IMG/VR virus record: IMGVR_UViG_3300045988_013400
DNA length: 5,893 bases
Strand: one strand, 5' to 3'
Origin: a virus
This document shows, piece by piece, positions 3,255-5,893 of the stretch. The notes below the pieces were generated by a model. That model was not told the DNA's origin. It saw only the letters and a list, made by a program, of their open reading frames with translations, and did no database searches. The position numbers and the translations under genes were made by a program. How positions within the stretch are numbered: the stretch's first letter is position 1; every line of letters starts with the position of its first letter.

Positions 3255-3671
3255 TTACTCCTTTTCCGTCATTTTGCTATTCGTTTGCGCCTGATCGGTG
3301 CTTTTTGCATTGTCTGTTTTCGTCATTTTAGACAATTCTTTAAGCTTCATTGCGTTTGCTTGTGCGGTCGCAATCATGCGGTGATACTCATGAATGTTTT
3401 GCGGAAATTCGGTGATGTCCACTTCTGCCCCCGTCATTGCTCCTTCGGATAAGCTTTTAAGGAACTGCGGGTCAAAACTAGCTTTTCGGACGATGCTTTT
3501 GATATCACATTCGTCTGCATAGCTTTCGATCTCCTGTTGAATGTCGATCGGTGCTGTTTCTTGGAGTACTTCTTCCCCGTTTTCGTCTTTCACCCAGACG
3601 TATTGTTTCCGGAATTTTTCTCCGCTTTCAGAAAAGAAGGGCTTTCGCCCTTCTTCATATCGTTTATTCAT
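3255..3671 (-). CDS. VP3: Putative internal scaffolding protein (VP3-like), 138 aa from the ATG at 3671
   Basis: Lies directly upstream of VP1. It is acidic and helical, with ADECDIKSIVRKASFDP resembling the ...CDIN.I..RF... core of gokushovirus VP3 as I recall it. The track start at 3710 is a TTG. The ATG at 3671..3669 has GGGAGGG (3686..3680) upstream and overlaps the preceding gene's stop (ATGAATAA). The family assignment rests on a remembered motif and on gene position only. Confidence 0.55.
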   Translation of the reverse strand: MNKRYEEGRKPFFSESGEKFRKQYVWVKDENGEEVLQETAPIDIQQEIESYADECDIKSIVRKASFDPQFLKSLSEGAMTGAEVDITEFPQNIHEYHRMIATAQANAMKLKELSKMTKTDNAKSTDQAQTNSKMTEKE

Positions 3672-3903
3672 GCGGCTTGCCCTCCCAGACTTTTTCGTTG
3701 TCGTTGACAAATTCGCCGTTTTCGTCGTTGAATTTTGCTAACTTATAGCCGGTATAATCTTCCGGCGACTGCCCTACAAAGGTTTTTTCGTCCTTTGCCA
3801 TTACATTGCACATTCTTGCAAACGTTGCGTTGTTCTTATTCTCGCCTACCCATGCATAGCATTTTGCTACGTTGTCCCATAGTCCATAATACAGATGCTC
3901 CAT
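3664..3903 (-). CDS. VP5: VP5-like non-structural protein (79 aa from the ATG at 3903), possibly involved in ssDNA synthesis/packaging
   Basis: MEHLYYGLWDNVAKCY...ATFARMC...SPEDYTGYKLAKFNDENGEFV follows the pattern I associate with chlamydiaphage/gokushovirus VP5 (short N-terminal beta strand ..D.KA..y, A.R.F, PEDY.LY.iG.fDd.tG.f). The track start at 3936 is a GTG that overlaps the ORF8-like gene. The ATG at 3903..3901 has AAGGA at a 7-nt spacing. Confidence 0.55.
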   Translation of the reverse strand: MEHLYYGLWDNVAKCYAWVGENKNNATFARMCNVMAKDEKTFVGQSPEDYTGYKLAKFNDENGEFVNDNEKVWEGKPHE

Positions 3904-3919
3904 TGTCTTTTCCTTTCTT

Positions 3920-4021
3920 TTACAGCCGGATGCCACCGCGCATGGGCTTCTGGTTAAGGTTGATAGCTTTCGTCTTTCTCGCGGTTACGTTGAACATGTG
4001 GCGATCTTTTGCGCCGCTCAT
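3920..4021 (-). CDS. ORF8: Small basic DNA-binding protein (gokushovirus ORF8 / phiX174 J-like), 33 aa. Not in the supplied ORF track.
   Basis: Hand translation from ATG 4021..4019 to TAA 3922..3920 gives MSGAKDRHMFNVTARKTKAINLNQKPMRGGIRL. It has 8 K/R in 33 aa and a C-terminal F..TA.kt...N......MRGGIRL, which matches my memory of chlamydiaphage ORF8 ending ..LFSRTA......N....IMRGGIRF. It fills an otherwise unexplained 89-nt gap in a gapless genome and starts 4 nt after the upstream stop. There is no strong Shine-Dalgarno, so expression is probably by translational coupling. Confidence 0.65.
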   Translation of the reverse strand: MSGAKDRHMFNVTARKTKAINLNQKPMRGGIRL

Positions 4022-4810: not shown

Positions 4811-4848
4811 ATTATAAGTATTTTATCATTTGTCAAGTCTTTTTTCAA
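4811..4848 (-). promoter_or_regulatory. Sigma-70/SigA-type promoter(s) driving the whole - strand gene string
   Basis: The - strand reads TTGAAA (4848..4843), a 17-nt spacer ending in TGa, then TAAAAT (4825..4820), which is a good -35 / extended -10 arrangement. Nested within it are a perfect TTGACA (4836..4831) and a perfect TATAAT (4816..4811), but these have only a 14-nt spacer. An AT-rich UP-like tract lies upstream (4849..4873). The first gene's Shine-Dalgarno and ATG follow about 30-45 nt downstream. Confidence 0.55.
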
Positions 4849-4873
4849 TATTTGTAATTATATTGTAATATTC

Positions 4874-4924
4874 ACTGTGCAAACTGGCAAGGTTGCCGCA
4901 GGCAATTTTGCCTTTTTGCACAGT
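4874..4924. repeat. 51-nt near-perfect palindrome (long hairpin/cruciform) built from alternating GGCAA/TTGCC pentamers
   Basis: Positions 4874..4897 pair with 4924..4901 around a 3-nt loop (GCA, 4898..4900). Of 24 positions, 20 are Watson-Crick pairs, 2 are G.T (4891/4907, 4892/4906) and 2 are mismatches (4884/4914, 4885/4913). Pentamers: GGCAA at 4886 and 4901, TTGCC at 4893 and 4908. Confidence 0.9.
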
Positions 4925-4925
4925 T

Positions 4926-4940
4926 CTTGCCGTAGGCAAG
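4926..4940. repeat. Second TTGCC-N3-GGCAA palindrome (cTTGCCgtaGGCAAg)
   Basis: A 6-bp stem with a 3-nt loop. It has the same 13-bp TTGCC-N3-GGCAA core as 4893..4905, and the two centres are 34 bp apart. Confidence 0.85.
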
Positions 4941-4953
4941 TTGTTAGCTCACT

Positions 4954-4991
4954 CTAACCGGTGCCCAGTTAGTCAGGCTAACCGTTTTCAA
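4954..4991 (+). repeat. 38-nt direct repeat copy A: one 24-nt hairpin unit ctaaccggtgcccagttagtcagg followed by ctaaccgttttcaa
   Basis: Identical at every base to 5391..5428. The unit folds as CTAACcGG-tgc-CCaGTTAG (8-bp stem with one mismatch). Confidence 0.95.
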
Positions 4992-5105
4992 AGTTTTCAA
5001 CACTTTCAACACTTTCAACAGGTTTTCAACAAAATGTTGCACAATGATTTTCGTCATTTTGACGAACTTTCAACAATTCAACAAGTTTTCAACAAAACTT
5101 TCAAC
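4986..5105. repeat. Iteron array: TTTCAAC(A) direct repeats in two clusters flanking a small hairpin
   Basis: Exact TTTCAAC begins at 4995, 5004, 5013 and 5024 (spacings 9, 9, 11) and at 5068, 5087 and 5099, with variants at 4986 (TTTCAAA) and 5076 (ATTCAAC). Outlying exact copies begin at 5153 and 5423. All are in the same orientation, and I found no exact copy in the coding regions by eye. Between the clusters, TTCGTC-atttt-GACGAA (5050..5066) forms a 6-bp hairpin. Confidence 0.9.
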
Positions 5106-5207
5106 AGCATTTTTTGCCTTTTATTTACGCTTTAGCGTTAAATTTTAGTACTTTTCAACTTTTCCACTACCCCTACTACTACTTCTACAACAAGTTAATA
5201 TTATATT

Positions 5208-5250
5208 GCGCGTGCGCGCGTGCGCGCTATCGCGCGTGTGCGCACGTGTA
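5208..5250. repeat. GC-rich alternating purine-pyrimidine block (Z-DNA-prone and self-complementary)
   Basis: gcgcgtgcgcgcgtgcgcgc (5208..5227) and cgcgcgtgtgcgcacgtgta (5231..5250) are each 20 nt of perfect Pu/Py alternation, separated by tat. Positions 5208..5248 are 78% GC (32 of 41) in an AT-rich genome. CGCGC (5223..5227) pairs with GCGCG (5232..5236) around the loop tatc, and the stem extends to 5216/5243 only through three G.T pairs on the + strand. Confidence 0.9.
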
Positions 5251-5302
5251 AATTAGATTATTTGATGGACAGAATAGTCTGATACATGGAGCCTTTAGAC
5301 GA

Positions 5303-5338
5303 CAAAAGCCCAGTACCTTACTTGATAGGTACTGGGCT
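5303..5338 (-). terminator. Rho-independent terminator downstream of Rep (end of the genome-length - strand transcription unit)
   Basis: The - strand reads AGCCCAGTACCT-atcaagta-AGGTACTGGGCT, a 12-bp perfect stem (5338..5327 pairing with 5318..5307) with an 8-nt loop, followed immediately by TTTG TCGTC. The T-run is short (4 T counting the last stem base). Confidence 0.6.
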
Positions 5339-5366
5339 AGGTGACACCATTTTCTAGTTAGTTAGA

Positions 5367-5428
5367 CTAACCGGTGCCCAGTTAGTCAGGCTAACCGGTG
5401 CCCAGTTAGTCAGGCTAACCGTTTTCAA
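5367..5428 (+). repeat. Tandem 2 x 24-nt hairpin units plus ctaaccgttttcaa. The last 38 nt (5391..5428) are direct repeat copy B.
   Basis: ctaaccggtgcccagttagtcagg occurs at 5367..5390 and 5391..5414, then ctaaccgttttcaa at 5415..5428. The array lies in the 3' UTR between the Rep stop (5437) and the terminator. Confidence 0.95.
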
Positions 5429-5436
5429 CGATATTG

Positions 5437-5893
5437 TTAAAGTGTCCCCCTCTTCTTCATCTGCTTCTTTATCACTCTTTCTTTTGTCTTACATTGCTCT
5501 GCAAAGTCTGCATTTTCATACTTAAGTCGGTTCTCTGCTATGACTGCCGCTTGTCTGTTCTGTTTAATTCTCCACAATCTTTGTGGGTTTTCAGCTTCCA
5601 TCATTTTTTCATAATAGCGCGGAATTTGTGCGCGTTTGCCGTTTGTGCATTGGATATATCCTTGCCGCCAGATTTCTTCTTTGTGCTCTTGGTAATAGTG
5701 ATCGCCTAAACCCGGTTTTAGGCTCATGCAAGCGAATGGTTTTGCTTGTCCTAGTTCGTAGTATGCGTTTGCTTTTTGACCGTCTATCTCATACATTTTT
5801 TTTGTGACGTATCCTGCAACATATCTATATGTTTCTGGCACTGCTTGTGCTATCTGTATTTGACCCATGCCCCATAGGTTCGCTAGCCATTCA
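5437..5893 (-). CDS. VP4: Replication initiator VP4, 3' portion (the C-terminal 119 codons plus stop are unique; 5795..5893 duplicates 1..99)
   Basis: ORF 5437..5868 translates as MGQIQIAQAVPETYRYVAGYVTKKMYEIDG.... The frame stays open upstream to the window end and continues at position 100 onward. The stop is TAA at 5439..5437. The track's M at 5868 is internal, not the true start. Confidence 0.92.
   Translation of the reverse strand, partial: EWLANLWGMGQIQIAQAVPETYRYVAGYVTKKMYEIDGQKANAYYELGQAKPFACMSLKPGLGDHYYQEHKEEIWRQGYIQCTNGKRAQIPRYYEKMMEAENPQRLWRIKQNRQAAVIAENRLKYENADFAEQCKTKERVIKKQMKKRGTL
5795..5893. repeat. Terminal overlap copy B (identical to 1..99)
   Basis: See the feature at 1..99. 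Confidence 0.95.

Follow-up and report, generated by a model that had tools for sequence, protein, structure and literature searches.

The locus and its repeats

The DNA analysed here, referred to below as the window, is a stretch of 5893 bases (IMG/VR record IMGVR_UViG_3300045988_013400) that represents the circular genome of a gokushovirus (Microviridae), with a terminal redundancy of 99 nt and hence a true length of 5794 nt. In the non-coding region of this genome (4849-5436, 588 nt), between the VP4 and endolysin genes, lies a conserved module in which an array of short direct repeats runs on into a (CTA)n tract and then an AT-rich tract ending at 5208. The repeats are best read as eleven co-oriented DnaA boxes ending in a complete Firmicute-type unwinding system, and the module as a mini-origin that would depend on the host initiator and act in either orientation; from the sequence we give this reading a probability of about 0.7. 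The gokushovirus seems, in other words, to carry a portable mini-origin of the host type, ending in a near-copy of the DNA-opening element of Clostridia origins. The architecture of the module, its pattern of conservation, its portability and its match to host origins are direct observations. Its parts are as follows.

4992..5208, + strand, 213-217 nt: whole conserved module, DnaA-box array then unwinding element
4994..5031, + strand: box cluster 1, TTTTCAACA, CTTTCAACA, CTTTCAACA and TTTTCAACA at 4994, 5003, 5012 and 5023
5035..5043, + strand: TGTTGCACA, DnaA-box-like 9-mer with one mismatch to TTWTNCACA
5050..5066, no strand assigned: dyad or hairpin TTCGTC-ATTTT-GACGAA, core CGTCA-N3-TGACG, lineage-specific
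5067..5106, + strand: box cluster 2, CTTTCAACA, AATTCAACA, TTTTCAACA and CTTTCAACA at 5067, 5075, 5086 and 5098
5107..5151, no strand assigned: variable linker from cluster 2 to the unwinding element (commonest-letter frequency 0.64)
5152..5168, + strand: two abutting co-oriented boxes, TTTTCAACT (5152-5160) and TTTTCCACT (5160-5168)
5169..5172, no strand assigned: C-rich spacer ACCC, 4 nt
5173..5193, - strand: putative DnaA-trios; + strand CTA CTA CTA CTT CTA CAA CAA, - strand 5'-...TAG AAG TAG TAG TAG-3' (3'-GAT-5' units)
5194..5208, no strand assigned: AT-rich stretch GTTAATATTATATTG, predicted unwinding site

The original prediction, made from the window alone, described iterons with the unit TTTCAAC(A), nine exact and two variant copies in a single orientation and confined to the non-coding region. 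These counts hold. The exact copies start at 4995, 5004, 5013, 5024, 5068, 5087, 5099, 5153 and 5423, all on the + strand, and the window has none outside 4849-5436; the variants lie at 4986 (TTTCAAA) and 5076 (ATTCAACA). Dinucleotide-preserving shuffles contain 1.2 copies on average and six at most, with none of 200 reaching nine. Of the 80 relatives that a search of IMG/VR with VP4 retrieved, nearly all have 5-10 copies, spaced as in the window. The repeat unit, however, is a 9-mer and not a 7-mer, and there are eleven of them, starting at 4994, 5003, 5012, 5023, 5035, 5067, 5075, 5086, 5098, 5152 and 5160. Start-to-start offsets are 9, 9 and 11 in cluster 1 and 8, 11 and 12 in cluster 2. 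The original prediction had not linked the (CTA)n and AT-rich tracts to the array.

Two further elements of the prediction stand in part. The hairpin said to separate the clusters, at 5050-5066, is real and forms part of the minimum-free-energy fold, and 109 of 156 unique modules have a GTCA...TGAC core. It is not a conserved structure and is rejected as one: changes in its arms are one-sided, none is compensatory, and the segment is replaced in whole lineages. The direct repeats said to be capped by single motif copies at 4986 and 5423 also exist (4949-4991 and 5386-5428, 38-43 nt, 95% identical), but those copies fall outside the conserved array, in a 24-nt tandem repeat specific to this genome.

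Resemblance to basal unwinding systems

In a basal unwinding system (BUS) a DnaA box, or two in the same orientation, is followed after ~4 nt of spacer by three or more DnaA-trios (3'-GAT-5') and then by an AT-rich tract (PMC8287927, PMC6669920, PMC10721633). In Bacillus subtilis two co-oriented boxes lie upstream of 5'-CTACTATTACTTCTACTA-3', the strand complementary to the trios (PMC10201434, PMC10721633, PMC8287927); the boxes are on its 5' side, and DnaD is bound via TnnT repeats (PMC10201434). The tract 5'-CACCTACTACTATTACTACTATGA-3' of Clostridioides difficile has three boxes before it and an unwinding element after it (PMC7561715). The orientation of B. subtilis boxes 6 and 7 on the CTA strand was taken from PMC10201434 and PMC10721633 together with the host loci described below.

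To be counted here as a BUS, an element had to have boxes directly upstream of the trios with no more than two mismatches to the consensus or to the species' own box; a G+C-rich spacer of ~4 nt, with a trio within 16 nt of the first box; at least three consecutive 3'-(G/A)A(T/A)-5' trios on the strand running 3'->5' away from the boxes; and, past the trios, an AT-rich tract that melts easily. The end of the module reads, on the + strand, TTTTCAACT / TTTTCCACT / ACCC / CTA CTA CTA CTT CTA / CAACAAG / TTAATATTATATT. The boxes occupy 5152-5160 and 5160-5168, the spacer is ACCC in the window and 3-4 nt long in relatives, and the opposite strand of the tract gives GAT GAT GAT GAA GAT. The melting tract is represented by the 25-mer 5183-5207, the second least stable of the genome at -24.5 kcal/mol (mean -32.6, sd 2.8). 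The + strand of the trio tract is also rich in TnnT, of the type recognized by DnaD. The combined pattern of box, box, spacer and trios had no match in 2000 shuffles of the window. By sequence, the boxes at 5152-5168 correspond to DnaA-box#6 and #7 of the basal unwinding system.

The phage element agrees with incC of B. subtilis and oriC2 of C. difficile in order, polarity, the ~4-nt spacer, the register of the (CTA)n trios, the pair of abutting co-oriented boxes, the TnnT-rich complementary strand and the AT-rich tract that follows, and with B. subtilis also in the CTT at trio 4. It differs from the BUS of Firmicute oriC regions in belonging to a 5.8-kb single-stranded-DNA phage and not lying beside dnaA, in having A rather than C at position 6 of most boxes, in an AT-rich tract of merely ~13-15 nt, in an invariant CAACAAGTTA after the trios and in nine additional boxes packed within 160 nt in a single orientation. 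A bacterial oriC is chromosomal and usually adjoins dnaA; the module, sitting in a microvirus genome, works like part of an oriC and is not an oriC itself.

Match to the origin regions of Clostridia

When bacteria were scanned for the three-box pattern, each species being represented by a single genome, short TTTTCAACA arrays turned up in several Clostridia and in one genome of the Bacteroidales. The gene adjoining the array in an Acutalibacteraceae genome (L183) led to longer contigs of L183 and its relatives: L194 (GCA_054290065.1), L199 (GCA_045638005.1) and the metagenomic L195-L198. Their shared gene order is parB-gidB-gidA, the array, a deacetylase gene and gyrA-ycxB-gyrB-remA-recF-S4-dnaN, then a spacer and dnaA; this locus is the chromosomal origin region. 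The dnaA-dnaN spacers of three of these loci contain the following.

L194: TTTTCCACC ATTTTCACA GCCT CTACTACTACTTCTA...GTTATATATATC
L195: TTTTCCACT GTTTCCACC GCCC CTACTACTACTA
L199: TTTTCCACA G TTTTCACA GCCC CTACTACTACTGCTA...GTTATATATATC

Between box and trios the hosts have a 4-nt spacer, GCCT or GCCC, and all three loci have (CTA)3-4 in the register of the phage; GTTATATATATC is the counterpart of the phage AT-rich stretch. The unwinding element of these Acutalibacteraceae-like origins, CACAGCC(C/T)CTACTACTAC...GTTATATATA, is nearly identical to that of the phages. A regular expression for box-box-spacer-(CTA)3 matched once in each host locus of ~20 kb, at the dnaA-dnaN spacer, and the same expression matched 136 of 163 distinct microvirus contigs. 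Identities between microvirus modules and host dnaA-dnaN spacers reach 19/19 and 33/38. The longer alignment pairs GACTTTTCAACAGTTTCAACAGGCCCTACTACTACTAC of microviruses L153 and L170 with GACTTTTCCACTGTTTCCACCGCCCCTACTACTACTAC of hosts L195 and L196, and four of its five differences are C/A exchanges at box position 6 or the neighbouring position.

The likeness extends to the box array. The three-box cluster near gidA reads TTTTCAACATTTCAACACATTTTCAACA in L183 and L199, TTTTCCACTTTTCCACAAGTTTTCAACA in L194 and TTTTCAACATTTTTCCACA...TTTTCCACA in L195, and its offsets of 8 and 11 nt are those of the first three boxes of phage cluster 2. Ahead of the dnaN ribosome-binding site, L199 has the box TTTTCAACC, and L194 and L195 have CTTTCCACA. 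Since orthologous host boxes toggle between TTTCAAC and TTTCCAC just as the phage boxes do, TTTCAAC is, on sequence grounds, a variant of the DnaA box that Acutalibacteraceae-like bacteria use themselves. The balance differs: TTTCCAC predominates in the hosts (16-21 copies per 20 kb, against 5-6 of TTTCAAC) and TTTCAAC in the phages. The similarity between phage and host origins is confined to stretches of ~20-40 nt and so fits capture and convergence alike.

For the bacterial matches other than this origin region (L184/L188, L185/L187 and L189) the flanking genes were uninformative. Downstream of the three DnaA boxes of the gidA-proximal cluster there is, in two species, a Spo0A-box-like TGTCGAA (L199 9715-9735; L194 7785-7800). 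The Bacteroidales contig (L190) has twelve TTTCAAC at 3505-3919, in both orientations, within the AT-rich spacer that immediately follows a primase-helicase gene whose product combines a BT4734-like N-terminal domain with DUF5906. The gene probably belongs to a mobile element, and the array is possibly that element's DnaA-assisted origin.

Conservation, portability and distribution

Conservation was measured as the mean frequency of the commonest letter in an alignment of 47 representatives, all with pairwise identities below 90%. Positions 2-9 of the 9-mers score 0.90 and position 1 scores 0.76, against 0.64-0.66 for the inter-cluster segment and the linker 5107-5151. The most constant parts are CTACTACTA...CTA (0.97) and CAACAA (0.99); trios 1-3 and 5 are 97% conserved and trio 4 is variable. 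The 4-nt spacer scores only 0.45 (entropy 1.65 bits), with TTGC, GCCC, ACCT, GCCT and TACT among its variants, yet it is always 4 nt long in lineages of the window type and one nucleotide shorter in a divergent lineage with the module on the coding strand. High conservation in boxes and trios and low conservation in spacers and linkers fit protein-binding motifs.

Box spacing is conserved among relatives, and the chief variation within the 9-mer is A or C at position 6, with some T or A at position 3. These changes convert TTTTCAACA to TTTTCCACA, a perfect match to the DnaA-box consensus TTWTNCACA, or to TTATCAACA. Position 6 toggles in boxes 3, 4 and 11 of the phage module; box 4 is TTTTCCACA in 11 of the 47 representatives, and in the box closest to the (CTA)n tract position 6 is C in 32 of them and position 9 is A in 34, the two together giving a perfect TTTTCCACA. 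The box at 5035 is kept as (T/A)GTGCACA or GTTGCACA in most lineages.

A BLAST search of GenBank phages with the non-coding region found the module block in 62 microvirus records, and it occurs in more than 160 IMG/VR contigs. A pattern search returned at least 119 IMG/VR stretches; among the matches listed, lengths run from 2.4 to 6.3 kb and are thus of microvirus size. The module is 75-85% identical in nucleotide sequence across gokushovirus lineages whose VP1 and VP4 proteins share ~40-45% of their amino acids. Its BLAST boundaries in relatives, inverted copies included, fall at 4992/4993 and 5201-5205. Six of the 80 relatives from the VP4-based search have the block 4992-5205 inverted with respect to VP4, with no change in the orientation of the adjacent hairpin block. 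Of 165 distinct genomes, 120 carry the array on the non-coding strand and 42 on the coding strand; in the other 3 it is absent or ambiguous. The module lies downstream of VP4 in some lineages and, in one divergent lineage, upstream of it.

A few contigs are exceptional. L016 (8.8 kb) is the sole close relative that lacks the module. L048, an IMG/VR contig of 10.7 kb, has it in both orientations, with eight motif copies on each strand, so that it could be a chimera or else a heterodimer formed from two lineages. These two and L008 are longer than one genome.

Proposed mechanism and points against it

Orientation independence, portability and conservation that outlasts that of the phage proteins fit a site in duplex DNA recognized by a host protein that is itself highly conserved. 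That the trios and their distance to the proximal box are under selection speaks for duplex opening and not just titration. DnaA binding, unwinding, the steps that follow and the benefit to the phage are what we infer from this. Once the incoming single strand had been converted to the double-stranded replicative form, host DnaA-ATP would fill the box array cooperatively. The boxes at 5152-5168 would anchor a DnaA oligomer, which would extend onto the trio strand (the - strand of the window, from 5187 to 5173), and the duplex would melt at ~5183-5208. The exposed TnnT-rich strand and the AT-rich tract could then let host helicase-loading proteins act. The likely use would be amplification or maintenance of the replicative form by host factors alone, with titration of host DnaA as a possible side effect.

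Several observations weigh against this scheme. Replication of the phiX174 type needs no DnaA, so the benefit to a microvirus is unexplained. Characterised DnaA boxes show strong conservation of the C at position 6, and most boxes in the window are TTTTCAACA, with one mismatch to TTWTNCACA at exactly that position; boxes with A there may be weak sites or may be bound by something else. Matches to TTWTNCACA with at most one mismatch are not enriched genome-wide (12 found, 14 expected), and the box-like 9-mers are unusual in their local clustering only. The AT-rich tract is short, ~13-15 nt, and the trio consensus does not account for the invariant CAACAAGTTA that follows the trios. Plasmids carrying B. 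subtilis oriC require more than the dnaA-dnaN spacer. Finally, the module is an accessory one, present in 62 of 3604 GenBank microvirus records, and no box-trio element was found in the cultured gokushoviruses phiMH2K, Chp2 and SpV4; as a general gokushovirus feature it is rejected.

A bolder extension of the mini-origin reading, possible but on balance doubtful, is that some gut gokushoviruses are not purely rolling-circle lytic phages. By means of a host origin that was captured or mimicked, their double-stranded form would be replicated like a mini-chromosome that depends on DnaA and is coupled to the cell cycle of the host.

Alternative explanations

The binding of DnaA might serve another end. 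The array could be a sponge or a regulator that titrates or recharges DnaA, in the manner of datA and DARS in Escherichia coli, arresting or deregulating host initiation, or DnaA-ATP could control phage transcription from the promoters nearby. The low-affinity arrays of E. coli oriC and the datA and DARS clusters consist of close-set, non-consensus 9-mers in the same orientation, nucleated from a stronger box. The phage array resembles them in its co-oriented runs of non-consensus 9-mers; they are chromosomal, have no trio tract and are unrelated in sequence. In favour, the eleven boxes per genome are multiplied by many copies of the replicative form, the array lies 120-250 nt upstream of promoter-like sites preceding the first gene, and orientation independence fits here too. 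A sponge or regulator, however, needs boxes alone, and conservation within the module is highest in the trio tract and in its fixed 4-nt distance to the proximal box, a feature that in known systems serves duplex opening. We regard this explanation as unlikely, while noting that it is in effect a sub-case of the same binding model.

The original prediction suggested binding sites for Rep or for a host protein. The second half of that suggestion gains support from the DnaA-box 9-mers and from the DnaA-trio element that matches the host origin; the first half does not. If VP4, the rolling-circle Rep, bound the repeats to position itself for nicking, one could understand why they are direct, phased and limited to the non-coding region, and why a conserved hairpin with a phiX174-like ACTTGAT loop lies ~100 nt away (5307-5338). 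The iterons of CRESS-DNA viruses and rolling-circle plasmids are likewise short direct repeats in the non-coding DNA of small replicons that use the rolling circle. In contrast to those, the TTTCAACA array shows no co-variation with Rep, and its position and orientation relative to a nick-site hairpin are not fixed. The array is shared by genomes whose VP4 proteins are 37-46% identical to that of the window, it is inverted with respect to the hairpin and the genes in 42 of 165 genomes, including the close relatives L010 and L036, and in one divergent lineage it stands on the other side of VP4. Arrays of the phage type are also found in bacterial origin regions, which encode no VP4. VP4 as the binder is thus very improbable.

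Equally little weight can be given to a complementary-strand origin, with the module folded in the packaged single strand and serving to recruit RNA polymerase, primase or a primosome. A microvirus of Gram-positive hosts must possess some minus-strand origin, and the module folds slightly better than its shuffles (z = -2.9 for the + strand, -2.4 for the - strand). Signals that initiate on single strands include the sso of rolling-circle plasmids, the minus origins of phiX174, G4 and M13, the phiX174 primosome assembly site and the R6K 'A site', a hairpin with a DnaA box, and a DnaA link to a single-stranded replicon is a possible common ground. The module differs from these in being largely unstructured (three or four short local hairpins, with ~70% of bases unpaired) and in occurring in both orientations. 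A single-strand origin is strand-specific by nature, yet a quarter of the genomes carry the complement on the coding strand, an argument which assumes that the packaged strand is the coding one, as in known microviruses. The sole hairpin tested, 5050-5066, shows no covariation, and direct repeats are unable to form the duplex boxes that DnaA domain IV requires.

It is just as hard to credit another DNA-binding protein of host or phage, such as a response regulator, Spo0A or VP5, with the resemblance to a BUS being coincidental. The - strand TGTTGAA is one base away from the Spo0A box TGTCGAA, and VP5 (3664-3936) matched a PHROG annotated as DNA-binding. VP5, however, is also present in gokushoviruses without the module, and coincidence leaves the 19/19 and 33/38 matches to host dnaA-dnaN spacers unexplained. 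Spo0A boxes proper are excluded, as the variable base toggles between the two DnaA-box forms and is never the required C.

The remaining candidates can be dismissed briefly. For an RNA gene, the only Rfam match was a chance-level miRNA (E = 0.24), with no tRNA or tmRNA; for a small protein, most differences between the two orientation lineages in the single open frame over the array are non-synonymous, and there is no conserved open reading frame. A promoter array is rejected because the -35-like hexamers have no partners and the promoter-like sites lie outside the array except for one weak match, so the likeness of the unit to a -35 box, mentioned in the original prediction, adds nothing. No match was found among 72,556 plasmids, which argues against a plasmid origin, and theta-plasmid iterons are repeats of 17-22 bp with a plasmid initiator nearby, whereas the repeats here are 9-mers and VP4 is the only initiator among the open reading frames. 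Plasmid and phage origins such as those of pSC101, RK2, F and P1, where a few DnaA boxes stand beside iterons for the replicon's own initiator, are like the module in belonging to mobile replicons that recruit host DnaA; the gokushovirus differs in encoding no initiator other than the rolling-circle VP4, and its element looks self-sufficient in host-type signals. A dif/XerCD site near 5192-5220 was unconvincing in a comparison by eye.

Gene content and flanking elements

The nearest GenBank records to the window are human-gut gokushoviruses, at 85-88% nucleotide identity. The redundancy at its ends (1-99 and 5795-5893) is an exact repeat, the VP4 gene is split across the ends, and the coding strand for all genes is the - strand.

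Spanning the window ends, stop at 5437, - strand: VP4/Rep
1528-659, - strand: VP2
3250-1568, - strand: VP1
3710-3255, - strand: scaffold protein, Chp2-type
3936-3664, - strand: ORF5/VP5, with the PHROG match given above
4848-4381, - strand: endolysin, peptidase-M15

A promoter-like TTGAAA-17-TAAAAT with a TG extension lies at 4820-4848 on the - strand, within the listed TTG start of the endolysin frame. The true start codon is therefore probably further downstream, which would make the non-coding region somewhat longer than 588 nt. Three other features adjoin the module.

4954..4991, + strand: repeat of CTAACCGGTGCCCAGTTAGTCAGG units, genome-specific, ending in the degenerate copy TTTTCAAAG
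5209..5250, no strand assigned: alternating purine-pyrimidine G+C-rich tract GCGCGTGCGCGCGTGCGCGCTATCGCGCGTGTGCGCACGTG, ~40 nt, outside the module, present in 70 relatives
5367..5428, + strand: 24-nt tandem repeat, genome-specific, between the VP4 stop and the conserved hairpin, holding the ninth TTTCAAC (5423)

The two runs of the 24-nt repeat bracket the block 4992-5366, and their ends include the box-like TTTTCAA(A/C). A search of 182 relatives found no match to the tandem repeat; in relatives the block starting at window position 5351 comes directly after the VP4 stop. The repeat looks like a recent duplication or insertion. The tract 5209-5250 is prone to form Z-DNA or a cruciform. Inversion of the module leaves this tract where it is, now adjoining the boxes and not the AT-rich stretch.

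The hairpin just after the VP4 stop (5307-5338, flanks 5300-5351) reads AGCCCAGTACCT-TACTTGAT-AGGTACTGGGCT on the + strand, between CACCTAG and CTAGGTG, and is homologous to the non-coding hairpin of the Chlamydia phage Chp2 (L192, ~2905-2950). Its loop ACTTGAT recalls the phiX174 nick context CAACTTG^ATATT. The strand bearing the loop is the coding one in Chp2 and the non-coding one in this clade (116 genomes); either the hairpin is not the nick site, or else the clade packages the antisense strand. Read on the coding strand it is a terminator-like hairpin followed by TTTTG.

Perfect DnaA boxes occur outside the module as well. An imperfect 24-bp hairpin at 4874-4924, common to only ~4 relatives, has a basal stem in which the perfect box TTTTGCACA (4914-4922) would be in duplex form even in a single strand, an arrangement that recalls the DnaA-dependent 'A-site' primosome signal. 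In the non-coding region of Chp2, on the minus strand, two perfect boxes TTTTGCACA stand 12 bp apart at 2820-2840, near repeated TTTTGGGC units, and no trio tract is present.

Significance

The literature searched contained no paper that links Microviridae or gokushoviruses with DnaA boxes, in agreement with the remark in the original prediction that such iterons are not established for microvirus origins. Judged by title, none of the DnaA-trio papers in it that mention bacteriophage concerns trios within a phage genome. The component parts are well known; as far as can be told, a conserved, invertible cassette of this kind in a single-stranded-DNA rolling-circle phage was not known before.

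If the mini-origin reading is true, the cassette would be a second, host-initiator-dependent replication signal in a family thought to replicate by the rolling circle only, and would suggest a route by which uncultured gut microviruses could amplify or persist as episomes. A natural cassette of ~215 bp, combining boxes and trios, independent of orientation and pared down by selection, would be useful for probing the minimal needs of origin opening by DnaA and the role of box variants at position 6. It would also provide, from sequence, a clue to the host of phages for which there is no cultured one, the element matching the origins of Clostridia of the Oscillospirales/Acutalibacteraceae type. 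Were the more doubtful mini-chromosome reading to be true as well, a plasmid-like carrier state could explain the long-term persistence of Microviridae in the gut without integration, and the replication control of the host could be perturbed through competition for DnaA.

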